DNA of 64,000 nt from an uncultured Pseudomonadota bacterium (lineage in GTDB: Bacteria; Myxococcota_A; UBA796; SXON01): NCBI GenBank assembly GCA_903900265.1, contig CAIUMM010000015.1, positions 4,036-68,035 of the forward strand, written 5' to 3'. Both the position numbers and the translations under genes were made by a program. The notes beneath the pieces were generated by a model. That model was not told the DNA's origin and searched no databases. It saw only the letters and a list, made by a program, of their open reading frames with translations. Position 1 is the stretch's first letter. Every line of letters starts with the position of its first letter. This document shows positions 5,741 to 22,834 of this stretch, in pieces.

Positions 5741-5940
5741 ACGCGCGAGCCCATGGGAGCAAACCGCCGCTCGCGTGAGGGGGCGTCACCCGAAGGGCCG
5801 AGACCGCAGGTCTCGGTCGGGAGGCGTGCGCGCCGACCGATAGCACCCGGCCGGCGCAGCCGGCGCGCCCACGAACGCAGGCCAACCGGACGGGATGCGA
5901 CAGGGAGCCCGATAGGGCGGGCCGGGGGTATGCTGTACCG

Positions 5941-6516
5941 GTGCCCCTGAACGACCCGGCTCCGACGTCCGATCCGCGGGTGCCCGTTTTTCCGCGAGTG
6001 ACGGGCGCCGATCTGGCGCGTGCCCGGGCGTTTGCGAGCGCCGAGCTGGCGCGGCCCAGGACGGGCTCGGAGTGGCGCGGGGAGCTGCTTGACTGCGGCT
6101 TGTTGGTGGATCTGGGCGCTGCGGACGACGACGGCGAGCCGCTCCGGGGCGTGCAGCGGGCGTTGACCGCGCTGCTTCGGGCCGAGGATGCGCTGGTCGC
6201 GGTGGATCAGCCGTCGCCGTGGTCGGTGGGGGAAGCCCCGCTTGCGGCGTGGGCCATCCTGTTTGGCACGTGGTTCGTGCTGACGACGGTTTGGAACCTG
6301 CTGGTGGGGATCTGCGGCGGCGCCGTTCTGCTCGGCGCGGTCGCGATCCTCGGGTTGCTCCGCCACGCCTACACGGCGCGGGAGACCGCGCAGCAGGTGC
6401 TCGCGGCGCGGGAGCAGGTCGCTACCGCCGGCGGGCTGCTGCGGGCGCGGATCCTAAGCCTGCACGCGGGCGCGTTCCCTGTGCTGACCGCGAGCGTGCG
6501 CGTCGAGGCGAGGTGA
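5941..6516 (+). CDS. Hypothetical membrane protein (two predicted TM helices)
   Basis: 191-aa ORF with a GTG start and high GC3. Hydrophobic stretch AAWAILFGTWFVLTTVWNLLVGICGGAVLLGAVAILGLL. No known motif. Confidence 0.6.
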   Translation: MPLNDPAPTSDPRVPVFPRVTGADLARARAFASAELARPRTGSEWRGELLDCGLLVDLGAADDDGEPLRGVQRALTALLRAEDALVAVDQPSPWSVGEAPLAAWAILFGTWFVLTTVWNLLVGICGGAVLLGAVAILGLLRHAYTARETAQQVLAAREQVATAGGLLRARILSLHAGAFPVLTASVRVEAR

Positions 6517-8047: not shown

Positions 8048-8347
8048 GGGCGCGCCTCTGGCCAGACGCTGCGCCTATCGGGTGGGGCTCGGACGCGCAC
8101 CGCGCGGGGCACTCTGCAGCTGCTCGAAAGCGATCCTAACGGGTGGATTTTACCCGAAGCTCTCCCGGCTGGCCTACCGCTTGGTGGGTGTGTGAGGAGG
8201 GTGGAGGGGCTTGGGCGAGCGCTCGACGCGCGCGCCTCGGCCGAGCTCCTCGCCGAGATCGCAGCGGCGCGTGACGGGGCCGCTTCGCGCGCGGGTCCCG
8301 GAGCGTCGTCATTGCTGCGGAGGACGGGCCGGGTGTATGCTCCTCGG

Positions 8348-10006
8348 ATGGTCTTTAGGAATACGGTGCTTTGCTTCCTGCTCGCGGGGTGTCACTCGGG
8401 AGATGTCCGGCTCGGCGCCGAGGCTCAGGGCGCGCCTTCGTCCGAGATGGAGGTCGTCCCGCAGGCGGATCCGGGGGACACTGCGGCCGAGGAGGGGGAG
8501 TCCGACGCCGTCTTTGACTTGGGCGCTGTGCATCGGATCGACCTCGTGATGGCGGACTCCGACTGGGTGCAGGTGCGGGACAATCCGTCCACGGAAGTGT
8601 GGTACACCGCCGACTTTGAGTGGGATGGCGAGCCGATGTCGAACATCGGGGTCCGCGCCTTCGGCCAGGGTTCAGTTGTGGCTGGAAAGCCGCCCATAAA
8701 GCTTGACTTTGACCGTTACGAGCCCGGGGCGCAGTGGCGCGGGCTCGAACAGATCAAGCTCGACAGCTCCGTGCAGGACGCCGGCTTTCTCAATGAGGCG
8801 GTAGGGACGCGTGCCCTACGCGAGCTTGGCCTGCCGGCCGCGCGGACCGGCTGGGCGCAGCTGTACGTGAACGGGTCGCTCGCCGGTCTGTTCGTTGTGT
8901 TGGAGTCCATCGACGATCGGTTCCTGAAGCGCTGGTACGGCGACGACAGCGGGCCGCTCTATGGGATGGGCACTTGGATGTACGGGCAGGGGCTCAATCC
9001 GATCGCTTGGGGCACGGTGCTCGATTGGTTCGAGCCCCAGACCTCAGTTGGGGGCGATGGGAGCGAGATCCTCGCGGCGATCGAAGCCACCGCGTCCGGC
9101 ACAGACGCGGATTTTGCGTCGGCGGTGGACGTCGACACGTTCACCCGCATCGCCGTGACCCGATCGGCGATGGGGGCGATCGACCAGTTTGCCGCAGACG
9201 GCAACAACTTCTACCTGTACGTCGACCAAGGCCGCATCACGCCGATCGCCTGGGACCTCGACGCCGACCTCGGATACCCCTACTACTTCACCAACGCGCT
9301 CGACATGGGCTTGGAAGAACCTTGGTTGTGGTCGCACGCCCGCTACAACCCCGTCACCGGCGCCCTCTACTCCGACCCTGTGCACGCCCGGGCCGTGGCG
9401 GCGGGTTGGGACGTCGATGGTTGGCTCGACACGCTGCTCGCCGGGCCGCTGGACTGGAGCACGCTCGATGCACAAACCGCTGGATATGCTTCGGTGATCC
9501 ACGATGCGGCGTGCGCCGACACGTACATCTCCTGCGCCAGCTTCGAGCACCGGGTGGTCGACCTTCGCTTCTTCCTGCACACGCGGTTGGCGCGCCTCGC
9601 GGGCGCGGAGGTCGCCCGTTGTGACGCCGCTCCCGACTGGGAGGTCACGCCCTTGCAAGGCGTCACAACCGTGGGCGGCAGTGATTGGGGGCCCGGCTTC
9701 ATGGTCGGCGGTGTGCACGCCTGCGATGGCATCTACGCGCCGGCGCCGAGCCGCGTGGCCCTGACCGTCCATGCCGGAACCTTGTCCGGCGCCGCGGGCG
9801 TCCACGATCGCAACATGAACGCCTCCGCGGGCATACGCTTCGCGATCCTCCAAAATGGAGTCACCTTGTGGGAGGACACCGTGCTCGCCTACGAGGCCGC
9901 GGCGCCGTTCGCCGTGCCGGTGAGCGAGGGCACGGTCCTGCTCGTCGCGTTGGGCAGCACGCCTGCGGAAGATGGCGCGTCTTGGGTAGGTCTTACGGTT
10001 CCTTGA
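8348..10006 (+). CDS. CotH-family (atypical kinase fold) lipoprotein
   Basis: Internal ATG at 8348 gives MVFRNTVLCFLLAGC (lipobox). The central region (KLDFDRYEPGAQWRGLEQIKLDSSVQDAGFLNEAVGTRALRELGLPAARTGWAQLYVNGSLAGLFVVLESIDDRFLKRWY) matches the CotH family pattern. Confidence 0.8.
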   Translation: MVFRNTVLCFLLAGCHSGDVRLGAEAQGAPSSEMEVVPQADPGDTAAEEGESDAVFDLGAVHRIDLVMADSDWVQVRDNPSTEVWYTADFEWDGEPMSNIGVRAFGQGSVVAGKPPIKLDFDRYEPGAQWRGLEQIKLDSSVQDAGFLNEAVGTRALRELGLPAARTGWAQLYVNGSLAGLFVVLESIDDRFLKRWYGDDSGPLYGMGTWMYGQGLNPIAWGTVLDWFEPQTSVGGDGSEILAAIEATASGTDADFASAVDVDTFTRIAVTRSAMGAIDQFAADGNNFYLYVDQGRITPIAWDLDADLGYPYYFTNALDMGLEEPWLWSHARYNPVTGALYSDPVHARAVAAGWDVDGWLDTLLAGPLDWSTLDAQTAGYASVIHDAACADTYISCASFEHRVVDLRFFLHTRLARLAGAEVARCDAAPDWEVTPLQGVTTVGGSDWGPGFMVGGVHACDGIYAPAPSRVALTVHAGTLSGAAGVHDRNMNASAGIRFAILQNGVTLWEDTVLAYEAAAPFAVPVSEGTVLLVALGSTPAEDGASWVGLTVP

Positions 10007-11293: not shown

Positions 11294-11362
11294 GGCGGGC
11301 GTTGCCATCCCGCGGGGGCAGGTTACCCCCGGGAGGCTCTTTACATCTCCTACGCAACGTTC

Positions 11363-11547
11363 AGGTGCCGCGCATCGCGCGGTGAAACGGGAAGCTGGTG
11401 AAAATGCCAGCACGGCCCCCGCCACTGTAGTCGGAAACGACGCTTTCAACGTGCCAGCAGCTCCAAAGAGCGCGCAGGTACAAGCCACTGGTTCACACCG
11501 GGAAGGCGAAAGCGCGTGAGGATTCCGAGAGTCAGGAGACCGGCCTG
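11363..11547 (+). promoter_or_regulatory. Cobalamin (B12) riboswitch
   Basis: Diagnostic conserved blocks read directly: ggtgaaacGGGAAgctGGTGaaAAtgCCagcaCGGcCCCCGCCACTGTAg, then aGCCACTGgttcacaccGGGAAGGCg, then the B12 box AGtCAGGAgACCgGCC. It lies about 100 nt upstream of a TonB-dependent receptor gene. Confidence 0.9.
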
Positions 11548-11650
11548 TACGTTCTTTGCCGCCGTCCTTCGGGGTGCGTGATGGGGCGTTCCATGCTCGA
11601 TTTTTGTCGACTCTGGTACGTCCCTCACCACAGGGACTGCCGGATCGTTC

Positions 11651-13801
11651 ATGTTTTTTCTGCTGCTGTCTCTCGCGCACGCTGCCCCGGTTGGGGATGG
11701 CGGAGCTGCGCCTGAGGGGGCGCCCGAAGTCCCGGTAGCGCCGGTAGCGCCGGTAGCGAGGGACGACGCGCCCGACGGCCGCGCCGCGGTGGACGTCACC
11801 GCGCAGATCGCGAGCCCAGACGGTTCCCCGGCCACGTTGACGGTGGTGCCGCTGGGCGTCGAAGTCGCGGGGGAGACCGATCTCGCCGGCGTGCTCGACC
11901 GCGTGCCGGGAACGACCATCCGTCGCCTCGGTGGACTCGGGGATTTTGCGGGGGTGCGGCTGCGCGGCTCGACCTTCCAACAGGTCGAGTTCTTCCTCGA
12001 TGGGGTGCCGTTGAACCCCAACGGCGACACGGTGGTGGACCTGTCGAGCCTGCCGGTGTCGCTGTTCTCGGACATGCTGGTGTACCGCGGCTTCGCGCCG
12101 GCGCGCTACGGATCGTCGGCGATGGGCGGCGTGGTCGATCTGCTCACCACGGCCACCGCCCCGGCGGCGCTCGGGGTCTCCGGCGGTTCCTGGGGCACGG
12201 TGCACAGCTGGGGCGCGACGCAGCGCTGCCTCGGCCAGACCGACGCGCTGCTCACCTTCGATCAGCTGCACACCGACGGCGACTGGTCGTATTTCGACGA
12301 TCAAGGCACGGACTTCAATCGCTTCGACGATCGGACCCCGGTGCGGGAGCACAACCGCATCGACCGGGCGAGCGGACTCGCGCGGCTGCGCACCCGCTTC
12401 CCGGGGCTGACGCTCTCGTGGATGGATGCGCCCGGGTGGGTGTCGCAGGAGCTGACCGGCACCATCGCGAACCCGTCCAAGAGCGCGACCTGGGACAGCA
12501 TCCGCAACCTCGCCGTCGTCACCGCCGACGCCAGCGGCGGCTCTGCGTTGCCGTGGCGGCTGCGTCCCCGGGCGTGGTGGTTGCACCGCGACGAGACGAC
12601 GCAGGATCTCGAAGCCGAGCTTGGGGTCGGAAACTCGTGGACCCGCGGCGTCTGGAACACCGCCGGGGTGCAGTTGGACGCCACGTTGCTGCCGGCGCGC
12701 TGGTTGTCCACGAGTCTGCTCCTGCGCGGGCGCGAGGACGTGTTTCAGCCGTTCAACCTGCTCGCTGACGATGCGGGTACGAAAGACGGCAGCCGCCTTC
12801 GGCGCGGGTTGTCGGCCGCGCTCTCCTCCGACGCGTGGATCCAGCCGGGCCTCGGGACGCTCACGCTCTCGCCGGTGGTGCAGCTCGATGTGCTCGACAA
12901 CCACCTCTTGGGCGATGTGCCGTTCGAGGACATGCCGGTCTCGCCCGGCACCGAGGATCTCCAGGTCTTTGTCATGCCGCGCGCAGGGGCAAACTGGGCG
13001 ATCGTCGGGCCGCTAAGCGTGCGCGCAAACGCCGGCTGGTACGCGCGCGCCCCCGATCTCACCGAGCTCTTCGGCGATCAAGGCGTGGTCACTGGCAACA
13101 CCGATCTCGTCGCCGAGCGCGGGTTTGGGTTCGAGGCGGGCGCGCACCTCGCCGAGTCCCGCCTCGGCGTGTTCACCATCGGCGCGGACGCCGCCTACGC
13201 CCGCCAGCGCGTGCACGATCTCATCACCTACGTGCCCAACTCGCAGCTCACCGAGCACGCCGTCAACCTCGGCGAGGCGTACTTCCGCAGCCTCGAGGGT
13301 GCGCTGCATCTGGGGCTCGACGGTCAACTTGGCGCGGTGCACCTCGGCATTGGCTCGGACTCGGGGGTGACGCAGATCCTCTCCCGCAACCTCGACACCG
13401 ACCGCACCTATTCGGACAACCAACTCCCGAATGTCCCACCGCTCGATGTGACACAGACCACCGTCTTGTCCATGTCTGCGCCATGGTTGGACAGCGTGAC
13501 GTTGTCCCATACGTGGTCCTACACCGCGGCGACCTACACCGACGCGGCCAACCAGAACGCGTCGGCGCCACGGGATCTGCACGCGGTGGCGCTCTCCGTG
13601 CGCCCCGGCCGGGACCTTCCAACGCTGCAGGCGAGCGTGCTCAACCTCTTCGATGTCCGCGGAATGGCGGTGGATCGCAACCCGTTGGACGCCGACGACA
13701 ACGCGCTCGTCGTCAAACCCCTCACTGATTTTGTAGGCTACCCTTTGCCTGGTCGCACGGTGATGATCACCGTACGCTGGGAAGAATCACCCCCGGAGTA
13801 G
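11651..13801 (+). CDS. TonB-dependent receptor (BtuB-like outer-membrane corrinoid transporter)
   Basis: 716 aa with a signal peptide MFFLLLSLAHA, a TonB-box-like VDVTAQ, and a plug domain (DLAGVLDRVPGTTIRRLGGLGDFAGVRLRGSTFQQVEFFLDGVPLN). A long beta-barrel region follows. It sits directly behind the B12 riboswitch. Confidence 0.9.
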   Translation: MFFLLLSLAHAAPVGDGGAAPEGAPEVPVAPVAPVARDDAPDGRAAVDVTAQIASPDGSPATLTVVPLGVEVAGETDLAGVLDRVPGTTIRRLGGLGDFAGVRLRGSTFQQVEFFLDGVPLNPNGDTVVDLSSLPVSLFSDMLVYRGFAPARYGSSAMGGVVDLLTTATAPAALGVSGGSWGTVHSWGATQRCLGQTDALLTFDQLHTDGDWSYFDDQGTDFNRFDDRTPVREHNRIDRASGLARLRTRFPGLTLSWMDAPGWVSQELTGTIANPSKSATWDSIRNLAVVTADASGGSALPWRLRPRAWWLHRDETTQDLEAELGVGNSWTRGVWNTAGVQLDATLLPARWLSTSLLLRGREDVFQPFNLLADDAGTKDGSRLRRGLSAALSSDAWIQPGLGTLTLSPVVQLDVLDNHLLGDVPFEDMPVSPGTEDLQVFVMPRAGANWAIVGPLSVRANAGWYARAPDLTELFGDQGVVTGNTDLVAERGFGFEAGAHLAESRLGVFTIGADAAYARQRVHDLITYVPNSQLTEHAVNLGEAYFRSLEGALHLGLDGQLGAVHLGIGSDSGVTQILSRNLDTDRTYSDNQLPNVPPLDVTQTTVLSMSAPWLDSVTLSHTWSYTAATYTDAANQNASAPRDLHAVALSVRPGRDLPTLQASVLNLFDVRGMAVDRNPLDADDNALVVKPLTDFVGYPLPGRTVMITVRWEESPPE

Positions 13802-15025
13802 ATGATGTCCAGAATCCCTTTTTCGTTGAACATGGTGTGGAGCCACACCCCGGCGGTGGCTACGCTCGCTGCGGTCTCTGCGGTCTCGCTGCTTTCGGCG
13901 TGTGACCCCAAGGTGGCCGATGACACGGGCACCGGTGACACCGACGCGGACACGGACACCGACACGGACACCGACACGGACACCGACACGGACACCGACA
14001 CGGACACCGACGCGGATGTCAATTACACCATTGTTGCTACCACCACCGACTACTCGGTCGGCGCGTTGGTCACGATCTCCAAAGACGGCGTATTGAGCGA
14101 CAATGTGGCGCCGGCTTCGTCCGACGCGGGCGTGCGCTCGGTCGCGGGTCGAGTCTACGTGATGAACCGCTCGGGCGAAAACACCGTCCAGCGCTTTGAA
14201 GAGATGGACTTCTCTGCTCCAACCCTCGAATTCTCCACCGGCGATGGCTCCAACCCGCACGACGTCGCTGAGTGCGGCGGCGCCATTGTGGTGTCGCTGT
14301 ACGCTGGGGATTCGCTGATGGTCGTGGACGGTAGAACCGGCTTGCAGACGGCCTCCGTCGACCTGTCGGCGTTCAACGACTCTGATGGCAGCCCTGAGCC
14401 CGACGGCATGTACGTCGCGCCGAACGGCTATTTGTACCTCGCGATGAACCAGCTCGAATCCTATGTCTCTGCCGACGGCAGCGGCACCATCGCCAAGATC
14501 GACTGCAGCTCGTGGCAGGTGGTTGGGTCTTGGGACGTCGGTCCCAACCCGTTCTTTCAGGTCGATCCTACCAACCCGGCGCGCCTCGCGGTGACCGGCG
14601 GTGACTACTACAACAGCGACTATTCGGGCCCGGAGCTGGACGGCGCGCTCTCGTACTTCGACACCACCGACGACTCGTTCACCACGACGGAGTTCACCGA
14701 GGTCTCGCTGGGGATGAACCTCGGCGCGGTCACCGGCACGCCCGACGGCTACCGGATCGCGACCTTGGACGATGGCTATACGTGGTCGTTGCTCTGCATC
14801 GCCCCCGACGGCACCACGACGATGTCGGATGTCGGCGAGGCCTACATCGGCTCGATGGAGGCGACCCCCGACGGCAAGGTTTGGGCCAGCATCGGCGCCG
14901 GCTACGGCATGGGCACGCCGCCCACGACGGGCTTCACGCCCCTCGATCCGGTCGCGTGCTCCGCAGGCAACGCGGTCAGCGCCGCCCTTGGGCCCAGCTC
15001 GATCACCGTGGCGATCATCCCGTGA
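13802..15025 (+). CDS. Surface/periplasmic lipoprotein with (Thr-Asp)n linker and beta-propeller-like body
   Basis: 407 aa. Lipobox LLSAC followed by GDTDADTDTDTDTDTDTDTDTDTDTDAD, then repeated beta-rich segments (YncE/propeller-like). The start abuts the receptor stop (TAG ATG). Confidence 0.85.
   Translation: MMSRIPFSLNMVWSHTPAVATLAAVSAVSLLSACDPKVADDTGTGDTDADTDTDTDTDTDTDTDTDTDTDADVNYTIVATTTDYSVGALVTISKDGVLSDNVAPASSDAGVRSVAGRVYVMNRSGENTVQRFEEMDFSAPTLEFSTGDGSNPHDVAECGGAIVVSLYAGDSLMVVDGRTGLQTASVDLSAFNDSDGSPEPDGMYVAPNGYLYLAMNQLESYVSADGSGTIAKIDCSSWQVVGSWDVGPNPFFQVDPTNPARLAVTGGDYYNSDYSGPELDGALSYFDTTDDSFTTTEFTEVSLGMNLGAVTGTPDGYRIATLDDGYTWSLLCIAPDGTTTMSDVGEAYIGSMEATPDGKVWASIGAGYGMGTPPTTGFTPLDPVACSAGNAVSAALGPSSITVAIIP
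13949..14008. repeat. Perfect 12-bp tandem repeat gacacggacacc x5 (codes for (DT)n linker)
   Basis: Read directly from the sequence. Units are at 13949, 13961, 13973, 13985 and 13997, flanked by imperfect units. Confidence 0.95.
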
Positions 15026-15027
15026 AA

Positions 15028-15333
15028 ATGCTGCGCGCGCTTGGATTTCTGCTGCTGTCCTCGGGCTGTGCCCCGGAGGACAGCTGTGTGTCCTTGTGCG
15101 CGCACGCGCACGCCAAGTTTGCGTCTTGCCTCGAGGAGCGGGACGCCGATTGGGGCACCTCCGTGGGGTTCAGCTCCGCGGCGGACTTTGATGATTGGTG
15201 CTCCACTTTTGTATGGGAGGAGCGCGAGCTTGGCACCGCCGCCTCGGGCGACCTGACCTGCGCGGACCGACAGGCGATCATCGACGACGGCGACTGCAAC
15301 GCGTGGTACACCGCGTGGGGAGAGGCTCCCTGA
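15028..15333 (+). CDS. Small Cys-rich lipoprotein
   Basis: 101 aa. MLRALGFLLLSSGC lipobox plus six further Cys. The start is 2 nt after the upstream stop. Good GC3. Confidence 0.7.
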   Translation: MLRALGFLLLSSGCAPEDSCVSLCAHAHAKFASCLEERDADWGTSVGFSSAADFDDWCSTFVWEERELGTAASGDLTCADRQAIIDDGDCNAWYTAWGEAP

Positions 15334-15350
15334 ACCTGAACTTGAATCGA

Positions 15351-16847
15351 ATGGTCGCATTGGCCTTGGTCTTCGGCTGCCAACCGGCGGCCGAGGCGAC
15401 TAACGCTTCCGTGCACTTCCTCCGCGGCGCGGTGGAGCGGGGCGGCACCATCGAGGTGCGCTCCTATCAGCCGGGGGAGACCGTCGACGGCGTGGTCGCG
15501 CCCCACGCCCCAGAGTGCAGGTCTCAGCTGGTGATTCCCTTGGAAGACCGCCGCGCCGACGCGGAGCAGGGCGCGCCACCTGCGGGCGCTGCGCTGGCCT
15601 TCTCCCCCGACAGTACGACCCTCGCGATTGGCTCGGTGGAAGGCGCGATCAAGGTGGTTCGGGTGCCTTCGGGCGCGGTGGTCGCTGAAAAGCAGCTCGC
15701 CGAAGGCTCGGTCAAGCAGGTGGCCTATAGTCATGATGGAAACACGATTTATGTGGGCGAGCAGTCGCCGGATGCCTACGTGTATGCGCTGGATGCGGCG
15801 ACGCTGACCGAGCGTTGGAAGGTACGTCTGGCGGATGACATCGCGTCGAGCGCCCTGCCCGCAGACGATACGATGTACGGGCGGTTCTCTTTGCCGGGCG
15901 CCTACGCGGTGCAGGTGCTGCGTGACGGTCGCGTGCTGGTCGCTGGCGCGCACGGCTGGGTCACCGGGGAAGGCCGCCAGAATCGAGCCCGCCTGTATGT
16001 CCTAAGCGCCGCTGGAGCGCAGCTCGCCGCGTATCCACCTGCCGGGGCCGCAGATGGGATTTTCCTCTTTCCATCGGTGTATGAGCCCGAAGATGGTCCC
16101 GGCGATGTATTGCTCGGCGTCGCGCGGTCCGCCGATGGACCGGCGCCGGACGCCCTGCCGGTGGGCGGATTGCTCGATCTGTCGTCCTCCGACCTTTCGA
16201 TGCGATGGAGCTCTATTTTCCCGCCGTTGACGCCCTGGTTCAAGGATGTCTATTTCTGGGAGGCGGTGGTGCGCGGGCCGGGCTTCGCGTTCGCGGGTCT
16301 CGGGGACGGTCGGGCGTTTGTGCTCGATGGAACTGGGAAGTCGACCGCTACGCTTCAGCCAGGGATCCCGGTGCTGACCGGAGGCGTGCCGATCGGGGTG
16401 GGCGTCGGCTTTGCCACCGCGAGCCCCCAAGGCATCTGGTACCTCACGACCAGCACCAACATCCCCTGGGGCAGCGCCGATCCCGCCGCCCGTCCGCCCT
16501 CGGCGCATCCTGCTGAGAACACCGTACACGCGGTCAAACCCGACGGTACGCCGCGTTGGGACCGCCAGCTTCACGAGGCCGTGGCTGGCGTTGTGCTCTC
16601 CCCGGACGGCTCCGCGCTGCTCGTAGGGGCGGGGCCACGGGAGTCCGACACCCGCACCGATCTGTTCGGCGCCGTCGTTCTCGACGCCGCGACCGGCAAG
16701 ACGATCACCACGTGCAGCACCGTCGCGCCTACCGATTTCCGACCGGTTTTTGCGCCCGACGGAGGGTGGATCGCGGTCACCGAGGCGCCGTTCAAGACCG
16801 GGGACGGATCCGTCGCCGGGGCCTACCAGGTCACGGTTTTTCGATGA
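15351..16847 (+). CDS. WD40/PQQ-like beta-propeller lipoprotein
   Basis: Internal ATG gives MVALALVFGC (lipobox). WD40-like blades are present (LAFSPDSTTLAIGSVEGAIKVVRVPSG..., VAYSHDGNTIYVG, VLSPDGSALLVG, FAPDGGWIAVT). Confidence 0.8.
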   Translation: MVALALVFGCQPAAEATNASVHFLRGAVERGGTIEVRSYQPGETVDGVVAPHAPECRSQLVIPLEDRRADAEQGAPPAGAALAFSPDSTTLAIGSVEGAIKVVRVPSGAVVAEKQLAEGSVKQVAYSHDGNTIYVGEQSPDAYVYALDAATLTERWKVRLADDIASSALPADDTMYGRFSLPGAYAVQVLRDGRVLVAGAHGWVTGEGRQNRARLYVLSAAGAQLAAYPPAGAADGIFLFPSVYEPEDGPGDVLLGVARSADGPAPDALPVGGLLDLSSSDLSMRWSSIFPPLTPWFKDVYFWEAVVRGPGFAFAGLGDGRAFVLDGTGKSTATLQPGIPVLTGGVPIGVGVGFATASPQGIWYLTTSTNIPWGSADPAARPPSAHPAENTVHAVKPDGTPRWDRQLHEAVAGVVLSPDGSALLVGAGPRESDTRTDLFGAVVLDAATGKTITTCSTVAPTDFRPVFAPDGGWIAVTEAPFKTGDGSVAGAYQVTVFR

Positions 16848-18514
16848 TCTGGCTGCTGGCGTGCGCGGCCCCGCCGCCAGCAGAGCTGAACCTGCGTTGG
16901 GCGGGCGATGGGATCGAGGTCCGCTCGACGGCGCCTGTGTCTTCCATTGCAGTGTTGAATGCGCTCGATGAACCTGTACTTCGGCGCGACCTTGCGGTGC
17001 CGGAGACCGAGTTTTTCGTCACCGTAGACGCTGCGCCGGGCACGCTGCATGTGCAGACGCAGGGGCCGAACGGCGGGGCCGTCGGCGAGTTGACGGTGCC
17101 TGTTGCGAGTCCGTTTGTCGCGGAGGTGCAGCCTGCGCCGGGTGCGGGTTGGGTGCCGGCGCGGGGGCGCGTGGAGGTGCCGCTTTGGGGAGACCGCGCC
17201 TCGATCTTCTTGCGCGTCACCGCTGGTCCGGCTCCGATCGACGTCCCCACGGACATCGGTGTGGCGCACCTCCCGGCGCCGGGGAGTCGCGCGCTGCTGC
17301 CGGTGCAGCTCTCCCAGTCGCGCACGGTGCAGGTGGGATCGGATGCGGTGGAGCTGGTGCTGGTCCCCCGGGACCCCGCGCAGGTCAAGGCTGACCTTCG
17401 TCTGGGGACAGCGATTTTTCCGGCGTCCCCCGATGGCGATCGGGATCTGGGCCGTCCCGCTGACGCCGTCGTCTTGCCGTCGCCGCTTTGGGAGTCGGGG
17501 TTGGCCGCGGCGGGCTGGGGCACGAGGATGCGCGCCGCCGAGGAGCCCTGGGCGAGCGTGACCGTGCCGGTGGAGAACCACGGCGCGGTGCCGCTGGACC
17601 TCGTTGTGTCGGCGACGGTGTCGGGCGTAGACGGCGCGGCTGCTCCGGCGTTCCTGCCTCGTTTGCGCTCCGCGGACGGCGGGACGGACCGGGTTGTGGC
17701 CTTGCTACGCGTGCCCGCCGGTGCGACGGGTCGTGCGGTGCTGCCGGTGTTTGTCGATGTGCGCACGGTGACGGCTGGGCCGTACACGCTCCACACCGAG
17801 ATCACGCCGTTAGGCGCACCCGCGGTGCTCGCGGCGTCGGAGCAGACGCTGGTCGTTCGACGCGGCGATGGGGTGGTCTCGGTTGGGTTTTTGCTGACCT
17901 TGCTGACCAGCGTCGCCGGGCTGCTGTGGACCGCGACGACGCTCCCGGTGTGGCTACGACGCGCCTCCACCACCGACTTGATGGTGAACGCGCTGTTTGG
18001 CACGGCCTTGTTCGTCGTGTCTTCGGCCACCGACGTGCTGGCGATGAGCGTCGGCGCGATGCTCGGGCCGTTCTCCTCGTTGTTCTCGGGGGTGCTCTAC
18101 GACGCGGGTCGTACGGTGCTGCTCGCGACGCTCCTGCAGCTACAGCCGCGCCCGGGCACGATCGCGCTCTCCATCCTGTGTTCGTGGCTGGGCCGTGGCG
18201 TGCTGCTGGGCTCGATCGGCCTGCCCGACCTCATCCACACCGGGGCGGCCATCGCGCTGGGCGAGGGCTTCGCGTGGTGGGCTGGCCTGACGCGCGGCAA
18301 GCCGCTGAGCCGCGTGCGCTTGTCGCTGGCCTTTGGGCTCTCCACCGCCCTGCTGACGCTCTGCGGGCTCTGGCTGCACATGGTCTTGTATCGGTTGAGC
18401 TTCGCCGGCTGGTACATCGGGATGCAGGTGGGTTTACCTGGCTTTTTGTACGTCGTGCTCGCGTGTCAGCTCGCGGTGCCGTTCGCCCGCAGCCTGCGTG
18501 AGGTGGACGCATGA
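16844..18514 (+). CDS. Membrane protein: about 410-aa extracytoplasmic beta-rich domain + about 7 TM helices (candidate substrate-capture/S-component of the downstream ECF-like module)
   Basis: ATGA overlap with the upstream stop. N-terminus MIWLLACAAPP. The C-terminal 230 aa form consecutive hydrophobic helices (VGFLLTLLTSVAGLLW..., ALFGTALFVVSS..., IALSILCSWLG..., LSLAFGLSTALLTLCGLWL..., VGLPGFLYVVLACQLAV). The role is inferred from context. Confidence 0.75.
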   Translation: MIWLLACAAPPPAELNLRWAGDGIEVRSTAPVSSIAVLNALDEPVLRRDLAVPETEFFVTVDAAPGTLHVQTQGPNGGAVGELTVPVASPFVAEVQPAPGAGWVPARGRVEVPLWGDRASIFLRVTAGPAPIDVPTDIGVAHLPAPGSRALLPVQLSQSRTVQVGSDAVELVLVPRDPAQVKADLRLGTAIFPASPDGDRDLGRPADAVVLPSPLWESGLAAAGWGTRMRAAEEPWASVTVPVENHGAVPLDLVVSATVSGVDGAAAPAFLPRLRSADGGTDRVVALLRVPAGATGRAVLPVFVDVRTVTAGPYTLHTEITPLGAPAVLAASEQTLVVRRGDGVVSVGFLLTLLTSVAGLLWTATTLPVWLRRASTTDLMVNALFGTALFVVSSATDVLAMSVGAMLGPFSSLFSGVLYDAGRTVLLATLLQLQPRPGTIALSILCSWLGRGVLLGSIGLPDLIHTGAAIALGEGFAWWAGLTRGKPLSRVRLSLAFGLSTALLTLCGLWLHMVLYRLSFAGWYIGMQVGLPGFLYVVLACQLAVPFARSLREVDA

Positions 18515-20685
18515 CCCCCCGGATTCAGCTCGAACAGTGTCAATACACCTTCCCATCGGGTCGCGTCGTCGGTCCGTTGGATCTGCAGGTCGCCGCCGGG
18601 GAGCTCGTGGTGTTGGCGGGGGAGACGGGCGCGGGCAAGTCGACCTTTGCGCGGATGATCGTCGGCCTCTCCCAGCGGCATGGGCATGGGCGCGTGGGTG
18701 GAACGGTGCGGCTGGGAGGGGTGGATCCTGGCACGTTGAGCGGTGCGGCGCGCGTACGCGCCGTCGGGTTCGTTGGGCAAGAGGTGGACGACTGTGTGCT
18801 CTCGGGCACCTGCGCCGGTGAGGTGGCGTTCGCGCTCGAGAGCGCGGGGCTGCCCCCGAGCGGGGTCGCCGGCGCGCTCGAGAGGGTGGGACTCGCCGGC
18901 TTTGAGGAGCGCGATCCGCTCGCGCTCTCCGGCGGGGAGCGGCAACGTCTGGTCATCGCGGCGGCGCTGGCGGCCCAGCCGACCGCGCTCGTGCTGGACG
19001 AGCCGCTCAGTCAGCTGGACCCTGCTGGAGCGCAGGAGATGGTTGAATTGCTTCGGGCGATCGCCCATCAAGGCGTCGCAGTGCTGGTCGTGGAGCACCG
19101 CCTCTCCCTGCTTGGATGTGCCGATCGGGTGGTGTGGCTGGGAGAGCCCGCCGTTCCCGTCCTCCCCCCGGAGCGTTCCACGTGGAACAAACACGCGGGC
19201 GAAGTGCTCCGCGTGGATGGTGCGACCTGCTTGCATCCGGGCGGTCGTGGCGTTCAGGATCTGTGCTTCTCCATCGCCGCGGGGGAGCGCGTCGCGATTG
19301 TCGGTGGGAACGGCGCGGGGAAGTCGACGTTGATCGGCGTTCTATCGGGTAGGCTGGCCACCTCTACCGGGCGTGTTGCCCGTGCAGGGCGCGTGATGGA
19401 GGTGCCGCAAAACGCCGATCTCGTCCTGTTTTCGGACACCGCGGCGGCAGAGGTACGGTACGGGCCGACTGAGTTCGGGCGGGAGGTCGACGCGACGGTG
19501 CTGTTGTCGGACTTCGGCCTCGCTGGTGTAGACCCCCGCCCTCCGCAGGCGCTCTCCCGTGGGCAGCGCCTGAGGCTCGCCGTTGCCGCGACCCTCGCTT
19601 GTGGGCCCGAGGTGCTGGTTTTGGACGAGCCGGGGAGCGGTCAGGACATGCAGAACCTGCATCGCTTGTTCGACACGGTCGATCGCGTGGCTCCTTCGGT
19701 GGTTTTTTCGAGCCACGATCCCGAGCTCGTGCGCTGCTGGGCCACGCGGGTGATCTGGTTGGAGTCGGGTCGCATCCGCGAGGACCAGCCGGTCGGTGAG
19801 AGCCTGTGGCTGGATCAACCTCCGAGGTCGCACCGATCTCCGATGATTCCTTCCGTCCTCACGGTCGCGGGGTTGGACCCACGGCTGCGCTTGTTGTTGG
19901 TGCTCTTGCTGGGACTGACGGTGGTGCTGCTCGACAGTGCGTGGAGTTTATCTGCGTTGGCCCTTGCTCTTGTCGCTGCTGCGTTGATTCACCCGTCGGT
20001 CCGGCCCTGGCGGCGGGCGCTTTTGCTCGGGGCGCTCGCGATGGCCTGGTCGACCGCGCTCTCGCAGTCCTTGTTCTGGCTGGACTGGCCTAGGACGCCG
20101 ATGTTCGCCCTGGGGCCGCTCACCTTTTGGCGCGAAGGCGCGGTGAACGGGCTTGCCCAGTCTACACGCTTCATCGCGCTGTCCGCGGCGGGGCTGCTGC
20201 TCGCAGCATCGACGCCCACGGACCGCATGGTGACCGCGCTACGATCCAGCTTGTTTGGGAAGAAGATCCCGATCTCGATGGTGCTGATGGTCGCGGCCAT
20301 GGTCCGCTTTGTCCCGCTGGTCGCGAGCGAGTGGGCCGAGGTGCGCGGGGCACGGCGTGCGCGAGGGCGCGCCGCTTGGCGGCGCTGGCCCGCGGCGTGG
20401 CTCACGTTGGAGATCAATCTGCTGCGTCCAGTGGTCGCGAGGTGCATCCGCCGCGCCCGGATGCTGGCCGAGTCCTTGGATACGCGTGGCTTTGATGCCG
20501 ACGCGCCCCGCGGCGTCGCTCACCCGCTGCTCTGGCGGCGCACGGATAGCTTCGTTCTGTTTGGAGCGGGACTCGCGGTGCTCTGCCTGTCGGTGTCCCG
20601 AGCCTTATACGCTTTATACGCCGCGGATATCTGGTATCACTCGGCCTTGCGCCCGCTCTATGGGGTGGTTCGAGCTTGGCTTTAG
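18511..20685 (+). CDS. Fused ABC ATPase-ABC ATPase-EcfT/CbiQ-like transmembrane protein (ECF-type energising module in one polypeptide)
   Basis: 724 aa. Cassette 1: GETGAGKST, LSGGERQRL, LVLDEP. Cassette 2: GGNGAGKSTL, LSRGQRLRL, LVLDEPGSG. The C-terminal 280 aa are multi-TM with CbiQ/EcfT-like character (RFIALSAAGLLLAASTPTDRMVTALRS...VPLVASEWAEVRGARRARG). ATGA overlap with the upstream gene. Confidence 0.85.
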   Translation: MTPRIQLEQCQYTFPSGRVVGPLDLQVAAGELVVLAGETGAGKSTFARMIVGLSQRHGHGRVGGTVRLGGVDPGTLSGAARVRAVGFVGQEVDDCVLSGTCAGEVAFALESAGLPPSGVAGALERVGLAGFEERDPLALSGGERQRLVIAAALAAQPTALVLDEPLSQLDPAGAQEMVELLRAIAHQGVAVLVVEHRLSLLGCADRVVWLGEPAVPVLPPERSTWNKHAGEVLRVDGATCLHPGGRGVQDLCFSIAAGERVAIVGGNGAGKSTLIGVLSGRLATSTGRVARAGRVMEVPQNADLVLFSDTAAAEVRYGPTEFGREVDATVLLSDFGLAGVDPRPPQALSRGQRLRLAVAATLACGPEVLVLDEPGSGQDMQNLHRLFDTVDRVAPSVVFSSHDPELVRCWATRVIWLESGRIREDQPVGESLWLDQPPRSHRSPMIPSVLTVAGLDPRLRLLLVLLLGLTVVLLDSAWSLSALALALVAAALIHPSVRPWRRALLLGALAMAWSTALSQSLFWLDWPRTPMFALGPLTFWREGAVNGLAQSTRFIALSAAGLLLAASTPTDRMVTALRSSLFGKKIPISMVLMVAAMVRFVPLVASEWAEVRGARRARGRAAWRRWPAAWLTLEINLLRPVVARCIRRARMLAESLDTRGFDADAPRGVAHPLLWRRTDSFVLFGAGLAVLCLSVSRALYALYAADIWYHSALRPLYGVVRAWL

Positions 20686-20716: not shown

Positions 20717-21127
20717 TCAGGTGCCCGACAGCAGCGCGTCCACGGTCTGCTGGTCGGCGCCCGGGAAGGGATACTGCCCGAAGGCGTCGGGTCGAACCCA
20801 GCGAATTTGATGGACGTTTGCGGCGCGAGGCGCGCCCACGAGCGCGCAGCGATACACGATCATGTCGAGAGCGTACTTGTCGTAGGTGTGGGTCACGTGC
20901 AGGACGCGATGGCCGACCTGCACGCCGACGTCGAGCCGGTGACGAATGCTGCGGCGCAGCGCGTCGGAGTCGCTCTCGCCCTCTTGCACCCGTCCGCCCG
21001 GAAACTCCCACAACAACGGCAGCGCAGACTCTGGCCGGCGCTGGGTGATCAGATATTCGCCGTTCTGCTCGATCTCGGCAGCGACGACGCGAATATGGGG
21101 CAGGTTGGAATTCGGGTTGGGTGTCAT
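20717..21127 (-). CDS. Nudix-fold protein, MutT-like but with degenerate Nudix box
   Basis: 136 aa. LLWEFPGGRVQEGESDSDALRRSIRHRLDVGV aligns to the MutT segment LEFPGGKIEMGETPEQAVVRELQEEVGI. The positions of the RE..EE glutamates read S, H and R. Confidence 0.8.
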   Translation of the reverse strand: MTPNPNSNLPHIRVVAAEIEQNGEYLITQRRPESALPLLWEFPGGRVQEGESDSDALRRSIRHRLDVGVQVGHRVLHVTHTYDKYALDMIVYRCALVGAPRAANVHQIRWVRPDAFGQYPFPGADQQTVDALLSGT

Positions 21128-21258: not shown

Positions 21259-21774
21259 GTGATTCGTTCTGCGTTGAAGCGTGGCATCAAGAAGGCGTTT
21301 GGAATGGAGGCGGCGCCGGTCGTGGCCCCCGTGCCCGCACCGGTGTGGAAGGCCCCTGTCGCTGCGCAGGCGGTGGCTCCCGTGGTCACTCCCGCAGAGG
21401 CCCCTGCACCTGCTGTGGAGGCCGCTCCCGTCGAACCCAAGCCTGTGGTCGATGCGGCTCCCGCACCCGCGCCAACGACGGATGACGTCGCTGCGAAGGC
21501 TCCCTCCCCGGTCGTGGACTCGGATGACACCGCGGGCGCGGCGTTCACCTTTGAGGCCGTTCAGGAGATCATGGACGAGATGGTCCGGCCAGCGCTTCAG
21601 GGCGACGGCGGCGACATCACGCTGCTTCGCATTGAAAACAACGACATCTACGTCAAGCTCGTGGGGTCATGCTCTACGTGTCCCTCCTCCATCCTTACGA
21701 TGAAGATGGGCGTCGAGGCGTTGCTGAAAGAAGAGTTCCCCGCGATGAACAGCCTCATTCAGGTCGACGGGTAG
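21259..21774 (+). CDS. NifU-like (Nfu-type) Fe-S cluster scaffold domain protein with Ala/Pro-rich N-terminal extension
   Basis: 171 aa with a GTG start and GGAGG upstream. C-terminal domain EIMDEMVRPALQGDGGDITLL...VKLVGSCSTCPSSILTMKMGVEALLKEEFP carries the CxxC NifU C-terminal signature. Confidence 0.85.
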   Translation: MIRSALKRGIKKAFGMEAAPVVAPVPAPVWKAPVAAQAVAPVVTPAEAPAPAVEAAPVEPKPVVDAAPAPAPTTDDVAAKAPSPVVDSDDTAGAAFTFEAVQEIMDEMVRPALQGDGGDITLLRIENNDIYVKLVGSCSTCPSSILTMKMGVEALLKEEFPAMNSLIQVDG

Positions 21775-22834
21775 CCCACAGCGCAGGGACCTTCCCGGGG
21801 ACGATGAGCCCCTCGGCCAGCCACTCCGCGACCGGGTGGTGGATCGCGACCTTGCCGACGTACACGTGGTTCAGGTCCCCGCCGTTCGCGCGCCAGCGCT
21901 GTACTGCGGCCCATCCCAAGCCGTACACGGCGTCCTTCGCGTACACCCCAGGCTTTCCAGGATCGAGCAGGCCTCGCTTCAAGCGGAGCGTCACCGAGAA
22001 CGCGCCCTGAGGTCCGTAGGTGCCGCGCAGCCGCTCCCAGAGCTCTCGAAAGCCCATTTGCCGCGCGAGCACGATGGCGCTGCGGATCTGCGCTTGCCGC
22101 GCCATTGCGCCAGGCACGAGGGTGCCCGCCTGTTCTTCGGCGGCGACGGCCAGACCCTCCTCCGTTTGCAGATTTCCGGGCAATCCTGTGGAGAACAGCC
22201 GCAGCGACTGCCTTTTTCCATTCTCCGCACGGGTGACGTGCACGTCGATCTCGTGCGCTACGAGCCTGCGAACGTCGCTTTGGCGGAAGGTCGCGCGGGG
22301 GTTGACGCGGATCTGTTGCTGTGTGGATTCGACCAGGACGCGGGCGCTCATGATCTCGTCCCGGACGACCTGCCAGCCGGTCAGACCGCGCGCGTGGATA
22401 GCGGCTTCGAGGGCTTGTCCCATGCCCGCCGCCCCTAGCACGGGTTCGGGTTCGGATGGCGTTTGAACCTGCGTGGTCGGCACCGATGCGTCGCCGCGCT
22501 CCCATCCTTCGAGGATCGCCCAACGCTCAAAGTGCTCGGCGGTGCGGTACCGAAGCGCGTTCGCCATCGCGTCGAAGGAGCTCAGCGCGTCCTTCAGCAG
22601 GGCGCTGAACGGGTGCAGCTGGGGCAGGACCATCCCATGCAGGCGCTCCTGCCATTCCGGCAGCGCCGCGGAGGCCCCGTACCGAAACGGCGGATGCGGT
22701 GCTCCTGCAAAGAACGCAGCTTGGGCCTCGCTCACGTTGATCGGATTGAGCAGATGAGCGGGGTCAAGCGCGTGGTTCGCGGCAAAGAGCGCGTCGTCGA
22801 AGGCGCGCACTTCATCCGGCAGCGACGGCGCCAC
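21755..22834 (-). CDS. DUF1704-family protein (QEGLA-motif / putative carboxypeptidase-like)
   Basis: 359 aa. HEIDVHVTRAENG and LQTEEGLAVAAEEQ motifs are characteristic of the DUF1704 family. It overlaps the NifU-like gene 3' end by 20 nt (convergent). Confidence 0.75.
   Translation of the reverse strand: MAPSLPDEVRAFDDALFAANHALDPAHLLNPINVSEAQAAFFAGAPHPPFRYGASAALPEWQERLHGMVLPQLHPFSALLKDALSSFDAMANALRYRTAEHFERWAILEGWERGDASVPTTQVQTPSEPEPVLGAAGMGQALEAAIHARGLTGWQVVRDEIMSARVLVESTQQQIRVNPRATFRQSDVRRLVAHEIDVHVTRAENGKRQSLRLFSTGLPGNLQTEEGLAVAAEEQAGTLVPGAMARQAQIRSAIVLARQMGFRELWERLRGTYGPQGAFSVTLRLKRGLLDPGKPGVYAKDAVYGLGWAAVQRWRANGGDLNHVYVGKVAIHHPVAEWLAEGLIVPGKVPALWATRRPE

Follow-up and report, generated by a model that had tools for sequence, protein, structure and literature searches.

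The 64-kb window analysed here, by which the whole stretch of DNA is meant, comes from an uncultured Myxococcota bacterium and has a G+C content of about 67%. It contains an operon of six open reading frames (ORFs) led by a cobalamin riboswitch. In order, the genes encode a TonB-dependent receptor (TBDR), three lipoproteins, a membrane protein with a large extracytoplasmic domain and an energy-coupling factor (ECF) module (Table 1). This operon, which is predicted to be repressed by B12, probably encodes a complete route for the uptake of corrinoids of the cobalamin or cobinamide type across the diderm envelope. All carriers of the cluster are uncultured and the whole case is in silico, with the riboswitch, the identities of domains and folds, and the linkage of the genes as the computed quantities. 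Related loci, designated here by L numbers, were collected by a genome scan with alignment A2, which gave 23, and by look-ups, which gave seven more, for a total of about 30. The relatives of the window are metagenome-assembled genomes (MAGs) of Myxococcota, mostly from lakes.

Table 1. Positions of the operon and its leader in the window
Feature	Position	Strand	Basis
Cobalamin riboswitch aptamer RF00174, operon leader	11346-11562	+	Rfam covariance model
Expression-platform region, from aptamer to first start codon	11563-11650	+	Hairpin scan and folding
ORF1, 716 aa, TonB-dependent outer-membrane receptor, BtuB-like	11651-13801	+	Pfam, PDB search
ORF2, 407 aa, propeller lipoprotein, remote BtuG homologue	13802-15025	+	Lipobox LSAC, family profile
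ORF3, 101 aa, small lipoprotein with six further Cys	15028-15333	+	Lipobox SSGC
ORF4, 498 aa, WD40-type beta-propeller lipoprotein	15351-16847	+	Profile search, synteny
ORF5, 556 aa, ECF S-component of a putative new family	16844-18514	+	AF2 models, Foldseek
ORF6, 724 aa, EcfA-EcfA'-EcfT fusion	18511-20685	+	Pfam, NCBIfam, motifs

Riboswitch leader and outer-membrane proteins

The leader matches RF00174 over the full model (positions 1-189) with a score of 107.5 bits, compared with a gathering score of 31.5, and an E value of 5.9e-26. It is the sole Rfam match across the window. The B12 box AGUCAGGAGACCGGCC and the other blocks quoted in the original prediction lie inside this alignment, and the cobalamin riboswitch placed there at the head of the operon is confirmed. 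Its position as a leader is conserved as well: among the 25 clusters with enough upstream sequence to be assessed, 22 have an RF00174 match on the same strand, within or adjoining the cluster, and orthologous copies are present in 21 related loci. The aptamer ends 89 nt from the start of ORF1, on the same strand. The region in between has a single weak terminator-like hairpin (11584-11598), followed by GATTTTTGTC, and the z-score of the platform fold is just -1.5.

The six ORFs are tightly packed on one strand, with the junctions that had been read from the sequence earlier. Gaps of 0, 2 and 17 nt separate the first four genes, and ORF4/ORF5 and ORF5/ORF6 are joined by ATGA overlaps. The same six genes were called independently on identical public contigs, and the G+C content at third codon positions is between 0.78 and 0.86 in all of them. 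No FecCD-type permease, BtuD ATPase or Peripla_BP_2 domain was found by Pfam or NCBIfam in the six products. No cob or btu genes occur within the annotated portions of the window, where annotation between 21 and 42 kb is partial.

ORF1 is the TBDR with a plug that had been predicted. It contains the Plug (PF07715) and TonB_dep_Rec_b-barrel (PF00593) domains, which together make up the plug and 22-strand barrel architecture of such receptors. The plug and the first barrel strands have E. coli BtuB as their best relative in the PDB (E 1e-14, the top six matches), while the best relatives of the C-terminal barrel are BtuB3 (1e-5) and BtuB2 (1e-4) of Bacteroides thetaiotaomicron. A 9-nt sequence, repeated three times at 11732-11758, encodes (PVA)3 near the N-terminus of this receptor.

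ORF2 begins at the base right after the stop codon of ORF1, and its adjacency to the TBDR is always kept across the loci. Its lipobox is followed by an (Asp-Thr)n linker and then by a beta-propeller of the YVTN/YncE type. No Pfam domain matches this protein, and profiles of the family were therefore compared with PDB chains. With 16 sequences in the profile, the only chains retrieved at E<=1e-3 were those of BtuG2, BtuG3 and BtuG1 (E 6e-5). When the profile was enlarged to 41 sequences (profile A6), BtuG2 (8BMX, 8BMY, 8BN0 and 3DSM) was matched with an E value of about 2e-9 over some 200 co-linear residues, BtuG3 with 7e-7 and BtuG1 with 2.6e-7. The matched PDB codes are BtuG chains (PMC10404256). 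The resemblance of this lipoprotein to BtuG, which had been put forward as something to look for, is thus found at the level of the family profile. The linker is encoded by a hexanucleotide repeat, (GACACG)x13, at 13937-14016, and the lengths of the tandem repeats in ORF1 and ORF2 could differ between strains.

ORF3 is the Cys-rich lipoprotein described before, its translation having the lipobox and six more Cys residues. No match in Pfam or NCBIfam was obtained for it, and relatives were detectable within these loci only. The gene is kept after ORF2 in most loci and is missing in L016 and L019.

The S-component, its propeller partner and the ECF module

ORF5 begins with a lipobox (Cys7), which is followed by three beta-sandwich domains (residues ~15-340), an extra transmembrane (TM) helix (343-373) and a six-helix core (376-555). 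The full-length AlphaFold (AF2) model, built on 44 homologues, has a mean predicted local distance difference test score (pLDDT) of 88.6, and its modelled helices span residues 343-373, 376-433, 439-455, 460-479, 490-515 and 522-555. The long helix 376-433 may be read in the model as a hairpin with its turn at the invariant G408-P409. Even though the order of an extracytoplasmic domain followed by membrane helices is as first predicted, the domain is smaller than the 410 residues or so assigned to it, since the model gives about 335 (residues 8-340) and leaves about 215 for the membrane helices. Cys7 is kept in 41 of the 44 sequences, helix TM0, which comes first, has an RR motif behind it, and the cytoplasmic loops are basic; the ectodomain is therefore placed in the periplasm and the core would have an in-in topology. 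The extra helix would act as a connector, so that the core keeps the topology usual for such proteins.

When the full-length model was submitted to Foldseek, only generic Ig, MG and FnIII proteins were matched because the ectodomain dominated the search. Residues 338-556 were modelled alone as well, with a pLDDT of 89.7 and a predicted TM-score (pTM) of 0.85. The top PDB match of this core is YkoE (5EDL), with a probability of 1.00, TM-scores of 0.65/0.72 and a root-mean-square deviation of 3.4 Å over 184 columns. The riboflavin S-component TmRibU (5KBW, target TM-score 0.57) is the second real fold match, and all remaining matches have TM-scores below 0.3. The membrane domain of ORF5 accordingly has the S-component fold that had been suspected. 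The likeness is one of fold, with YkoE and RibU, and does not extend in sequence to CbrT, CbiM or BtuM, which had been named as candidates; nor are NikM, CbiM or BtuM structures among the top 50 Foldseek matches of the core. ORF5 has no sequence match in Pfam, NCBIfam or the PDB, and the profile of its TM domain retrieved nothing from the whole PDB at E<=10. No CbiM match was found in Pfam for ORF5 at E<=0.1, or for the TM domains of the family at E<=10. By its sequence and its model the core appears to be an S-component of no described family, whether CbrT, BtuM, CbiM, YkoE, RibU or others. Pfam DUF5862 has weak matches in four of 29 TM domains of the family (17855-18511 in the window, and homologues), with a best E value of 2.6e-4, and this family of unknown function might link them by sequence to further uncharacterised proteins that resemble S-components.

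In a search of 1.84 billion representatives, the profile of the TM domain found 438 clusters at 50% identity. The best 150 of these 438 clusters are nearly all 540-660 aa long and have the TM domain at the C-terminus, and the fusion with an ectodomain is therefore the hallmark of the family. The unusually large periplasmic domain that was originally pointed out on the putative S-component is present in the model and kept across the family. In helix 1, position 387 of the family is S, T or A, with V or L at +4 and V at +5.

ORF4 has WD40 and PQQ matches in Pfam below threshold. Its profile finds only WD40 proteins in the PDB; for this reason it is considered a propeller that is not BtuG-like, and its candidacy as a second BtuG relative is rejected, while its prediction as a WD40-type propeller lipoprotein holds. 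Four residues, C56, H201, H386 and C455, are invariant. Every locus of sufficient length has a homologue of ORF4 and one of ORF5 in the same cluster, with ORF4 usually immediately upstream, and the pairing holds equally in look-ups begun from ORF4. The invariant core of the cluster is this pair, and ORF4 is an obligate partner of ORF5. An S-component that bears an ectodomain and has an obligate propeller partner are the unusual conserved features of the system.

In ORF6, two ABC_tran domains are followed by a CbiQ domain (PF02361, 68.7 bits, residues 454-663). Both the two ATP-binding cassettes (ABC) and the C-terminal T-component that had been recognised in this single chain are thus present. 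The best NCBIfam models, ECF_ATPase_1/2 and cbiO, all score under their equivalog cutoffs because of the fusion and the divergence of the protein. The ATPase motifs are Walker A at 40 and 268, LSGGE at 139, a degenerate LSRGQ at 348 and Walker B at 162 and 371, while the Arg motifs of the T-component are ARG at 617 and RGF at 659. The triple fusion was thought to be a distinguishing mark of the system, but it is found in about eight loci (the window, L003-5, L007, L014, L031 and one more contig), whereas AA and T are separate genes in about 17. It is therefore a lineage-specific variant rather than a defining feature. In about 24 loci the genes for EcfAA' and EcfT come directly after ORF5, and their codons often overlap; L020 and L021 are the exceptions.

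The operon has the features by which a group-I ECF transporter is recognised, namely a T-component, two ATPase domains, an S-component fold and the linkage of the S, T and A genes. Such transporters are also defined by having no extracytoplasmic binding protein or domain, the substrate being bound by the S-component alone. Since extracytoplasmic modules are present here, in the form of the ORF5 ectodomain and its paired propeller lipoprotein, the operon departs from the ECF definition.

Related loci and the proposed corrinoid route

The complete six-gene order is found in L003-L013 and in L031. Some loci split the cluster in two, one part being riboswitch-TBDR-ORF2(-ORF3) and the other ORF4-ORF5-ECF. 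In L017, L018, L020 and L021 a riboswitch lies directly ahead of ORF4-ORF5, while L024 and L025 begin with a shorter ORF5 and end with ORF4. Among 130 flanking genes surveyed with Pfam in 26 loci, no function was enriched, whether related to B12 or cobalt or otherwise, and the cluster is therefore considered self-contained.

Several loci have neighbours of their own. In L020 (10737-13346) and L021 (11676-14369), ORF5 is followed by a Cation_efflux gene, of the cation diffusion facilitator (CDF) type, and a gene for a 540-aa protein, with no ECF module; MetH and CobQ are near the cluster in L021. In L024 (61-9329), which belongs to a Sandaracinaceae MAG, a pair of cobalamin riboswitches points in opposite directions, at 5808-5996 (-) and 6093-6322 (+). 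The plus-strand riboswitch heads ChlD-ChlI-ORF5-A-A-T-ORF4-CN_hydrolase, with CobN upstream, while the minus-strand one leads a gene resembling ADH and another resembling TrpD/glycosyltransferase-3. In L029 (633-12555), a distant member, the ORF5-like gene, CbiQ and then cbiZ are overlapping genes. This cbiZ encodes adenosylcobinamide amidohydrolase, a salvage enzyme, and cobS, cobT (DBI_PRT), cobU and cobC, which have corrinoid salvage functions, lie 6-9 kb away. No riboswitch was found in the available sequence of this locus.

Just downstream of the operon in the window are NUDIX (20717-21127, -), NifU (21259-21774, +) and MATCAP (21755-22834, -) genes, the last encoding a bacterial homologue of the microtubule-associated tyrosine carboxypeptidase (PF08014), and the trio is also found beside the operon in three or four related loci. 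A CotH-domain protein is encoded just upstream of the operon region (8192-10006), and a large protein with Cu-binding MopE and lamin-tail domains at 56.2-59.0 kb; both are apparently unrelated to it. L031 has a group I intron match (RF00028, 65 bits) at 1426-1658 (-), flanked by a Ser/Thr kinase-WD40 gene and a SAVED-domain gene, and the distance from it to the riboswitch downstream is about 3.5 kb. The contigs of L007, L012, L014, L015 and L018 are Myxococcota-like but publicly named Klebsiella pneumoniae, Bifidobacterium breve or Enterobacteriaceae, and these names look like placeholder or erroneous taxonomy.

From these data we infer which substrate is carried, in which direction and in what order it is handed on, and whatever part ORF3, ORF4 or the ectodomain would have in binding it. 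The riboswitch would permit expression of the operon at low intracellular B12. At the outer membrane, the BtuB-like receptor and the BtuG-like lipoprotein, perhaps with the small Cys-rich lipoprotein, would capture and import the corrinoid. In the periplasm it would be received by the lipid-anchored ORF4 propeller and the triple beta-sandwich ectodomain of ORF5, both held at the inner membrane. The six-helix core of ORF5 would then move the corrinoid across the inner membrane, powered by ATP hydrolysis in the dedicated EcfA-EcfA'-EcfT module. A corrinoid substrate is suggested by the BtuB-like/BtuG-like pair, by cbiZ and the cob genes of L029 and by MetH and CobQ of L021. A further proposal, put forward tentatively, is that this would be the first ECF transporter to rely on extracytoplasmic capture modules. 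These modules, the lipid-anchored WD40 propeller and the triple beta-sandwich ectodomain that the extra TM helix tethers to the S-component, would relay the corrinoid from a BtuB/BtuG-type outer-membrane complex directly into the S-component.

Several observations weigh against this route. ORF1 scores far under the BtuB equivalog cutoffs (NF007926, 72.8 versus 836 bits; TIGR01779, 63.3 versus 599.7). The top PDB match of the 41-sequence ORF2 profile is a generic YVTN S-layer propeller, 1L0Q, and because it scores slightly above BtuG through its repeated blades, the homology of ORF2 to BtuG is at the level of the superfamily. The hairpin scan and the folding defined no expression platform for the riboswitch, and the riboswitch is absent in clusters L023, L026 and L032. 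CbrT, BtuM and BtuF are all missing from the matches of the ORF5 profile, which therefore include no known inner-membrane corrinoid binder. L020 and L021, which are from sibling Myxococcota MAGs, have no EcfA or EcfT within 10 kb, and this is not explained by a corrinoid transporter. In L024 the genes are set among those of the cobaltochelatase (CobN/ChlI/ChlD), which hints at a metal.

The main rival is cobalt uptake, in which the operon would import cobalt, as the free ion or a chelate, for B12 synthesis through an elaborated CbiMNQO-like ECF metal transporter, with the TBDR and the lipoproteins handling a metal complex at the outer membrane. Regulation by B12 riboswitches extends to cobalt importers, and CbiQ and CbiO are named after the cobalt system. 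CbiM and NikM have seven TM helices with the N-terminus outside, and ORF5, with the same number and orientation, recalls them. The CDF gene directly after ORF5 in L020 and L021, and the position of the L024 genes after ChlD and ChlI and near CobN, point in the same direction. However, no CbiM or NikM match was found in Pfam, and the 50 best Foldseek matches include YkoE and RibU but neither NikM nor CbiM. The N-terminus of ORF5 is a lipobox and a beta-sandwich rather than a metal-ligating His motif, the closest solved relatives of the TBDR are BtuBs, and the neighbour of the TBDR is BtuG-like. Since cbiZ, a corrinoid-salvage gene, is also co-operonic in the distant L029, and no wider enrichment of cobalt genes was seen among the 130 flanking genes, cobalt import is judged unlikely.

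It is very unlikely that the ECF part carries another B12-related molecule, such as alpha-ribazole, dimethylbenzimidazole (DMB) or an early metal-free corrin, and that the outer-membrane half alone handles complete corrinoids. Riboswitch-controlled ECF S-components for lower-ligand precursors exist, CblT having been proposed for alpha-ribazole or DMB, and this precedent favours such a division of labour. ORF4-ORF5(-ECF) under a riboswitch of its own and with no TBDR, as in L017, L018, L020, L021, L024 and L025, would also agree with it, as would the adjacency of CobN and ChlID in L024. Against this, the window and about 15 other loci keep the six genes in a single operon in which stop and start codons overlap, and a single substrate is therefore more plausible. 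A small diffusible base would hardly call for a large periplasmic ectodomain and a propeller partner, and the linkage of cbiZ points to cobinamide or a cobamide as the import. That ORF5 is a membrane-anchored receptor or scaffold merely sharing the S-component fold, like the 5TMR sensor kinases, with the ABC/CbiQ protein in another role, is also very unlikely: receptors do use this fold (PMC11109136), the toppling motion proposed for ECF S-components would probably be hindered by an additional TM helix and a lipid-anchored ectodomain, and no ECF module is adjacent in L020 and L021, but ORF5 has no cytoplasmic signalling domain and ends about five residues past helix 6, EcfAA' and EcfT directly follow it in about 24 loci, and the YkoE-like motif of helix 1 is kept in its family.

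Corrinoid uptake is thus the preferred reading of the operon, most likely by a pathway with a new S-component family, and the in silico evidence is solid and consistent. Many B12-dependent Gram-negative bacteria have BtuB without BtuCDF, and their inner-membrane route is an acknowledged gap (PMC6072759). The operon is a concrete and widespread candidate for this gap, with its 438 S-component clusters mostly from freshwater and soil Myxococcota MAGs, and it offers a complete set of genes that can be cloned. If the proposal is true, diderm bacteria would have a third way of taking B12 across the inner membrane, two textbook rules of ECF transport would be broken, the absence of a binding protein and the free toppling of the S-component, and BtuG-type capture would not be confined to Bacteroidota. 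The doubly anchored S-component with its periplasmic array would be a test of both the toppling model and the dogma that ECF transport does without a binding protein. The BtuG-like lipoprotein would take a device for B12 piracy to another phylum, which bears on models of competition for B12 in lakes and soils.

Comparison with known transport systems

The literature check, which left Rodionov et al. 2009, the original prediction paper on ECF transporters and CbrT, outside its scope, found no description of this architecture. YkoEDC of Bacillus subtilis (PMC5037267) is the closest in fold and is also alike in its riboswitch control, its dedicated module and its fused AA ATPase. The structure 5EDL is that of YkoE, the S-component of this riboswitch-controlled group-I transporter, in which the ATPase YkoD is an AA fusion (PMC5037267). 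Helices 1 and 2 are long in both proteins, and the helix-1 pattern of ORF5 mirrors the S/AxxxI/VV motif of YkoE. YkoEDC differs in its thiamine pyrophosphate riboswitch, its thiamine-precursor substrate and its Gram-positive hosts, and YkoE has no ectodomain, extra helix or periplasmic partner. The structural alignment of the two has 18% identity.

ECF-CbrT of Lactobacillus delbrueckii is a characterised ECF-type importer of cobalamin and cobinamide that was likewise found through a B12-related genomic context (PMC5997447). CbrT, from a monoderm, is of the plain type with a mass of about 20 kDa, and its group-II module also serves seven other S-components. ORF5, which has no detectable sequence similarity to it, has a dedicated group-I module and is enlarged by an extra TM helix and by a lipid-anchored ectodomain of some 335 aa; the propeller partner always accompanies it, and it stands behind a BtuB/BtuG-like pair. 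In the survey of S-component folds, the terms 'N-terminal domain' and 'extracytoplasmic' have no matches, and the fused domains discussed are those of receptor signalling and NRAMP (PMC11109136). BtuM of Thiobacillus denitrificans, which was found through its co-localisation with btuB, also has an S-component fold and is proposed to take up B12 across a diderm inner membrane (PMC6072759). It is, however, a solitary protein of about 22 kDa with no ECF module, whereas a dedicated module is present in most of the loci described here.

The outer-membrane half resembles the BtuB-BtuG system of Bacteroides, in which a riboswitch-controlled TBDR is followed by a beta-propeller lipoprotein (PMC6143338, PMC10404256). 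BtuG has been reported as exclusive to Bacteroidetes (PMC6143338), while the hosts here are Myxococcota and the similarity is remote, detected at the level of profiles with no Pfam match. Bacteroides BtuG, a seven-bladed propeller, is exposed at the surface, forms a complex with BtuB and binds B12 with femtomolar affinity, whereas ORF2 is a predicted propeller lipoprotein. Bacteroides pair BtuBG with BtuFCD, and the partner here is an ECF importer.

BtuCDF is the canonical inner-membrane B12 importer of Gram-negative bacteria. The job presumed for the ORF5/ORF6 system is the one done by the E. coli transporter, in which ATP drives corrinoid out of the periplasm and into the cytoplasm after its passage through BtuB, and a periplasmic binding partner may take part here too. 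BtuCDF belongs to an unrelated class, that of the type II ABC transporters, with a FecCD permease and a cluster-A binding protein, none of which is encoded in the operon. CbiMNQO and NikMNQO are group-I ECF transporters, as is the system proposed here, and are often under the control of B12 riboswitches. Their S-components, CbiM and NikM, have an extra N-terminal helix and an outward N-terminus, and they are accompanied by accessory extracytoplasmic subunits, CbiN and NikK/L. In ORF5, the outward N-terminus is a folded array of beta-sandwich domains rather than a metal-ligating peptide.

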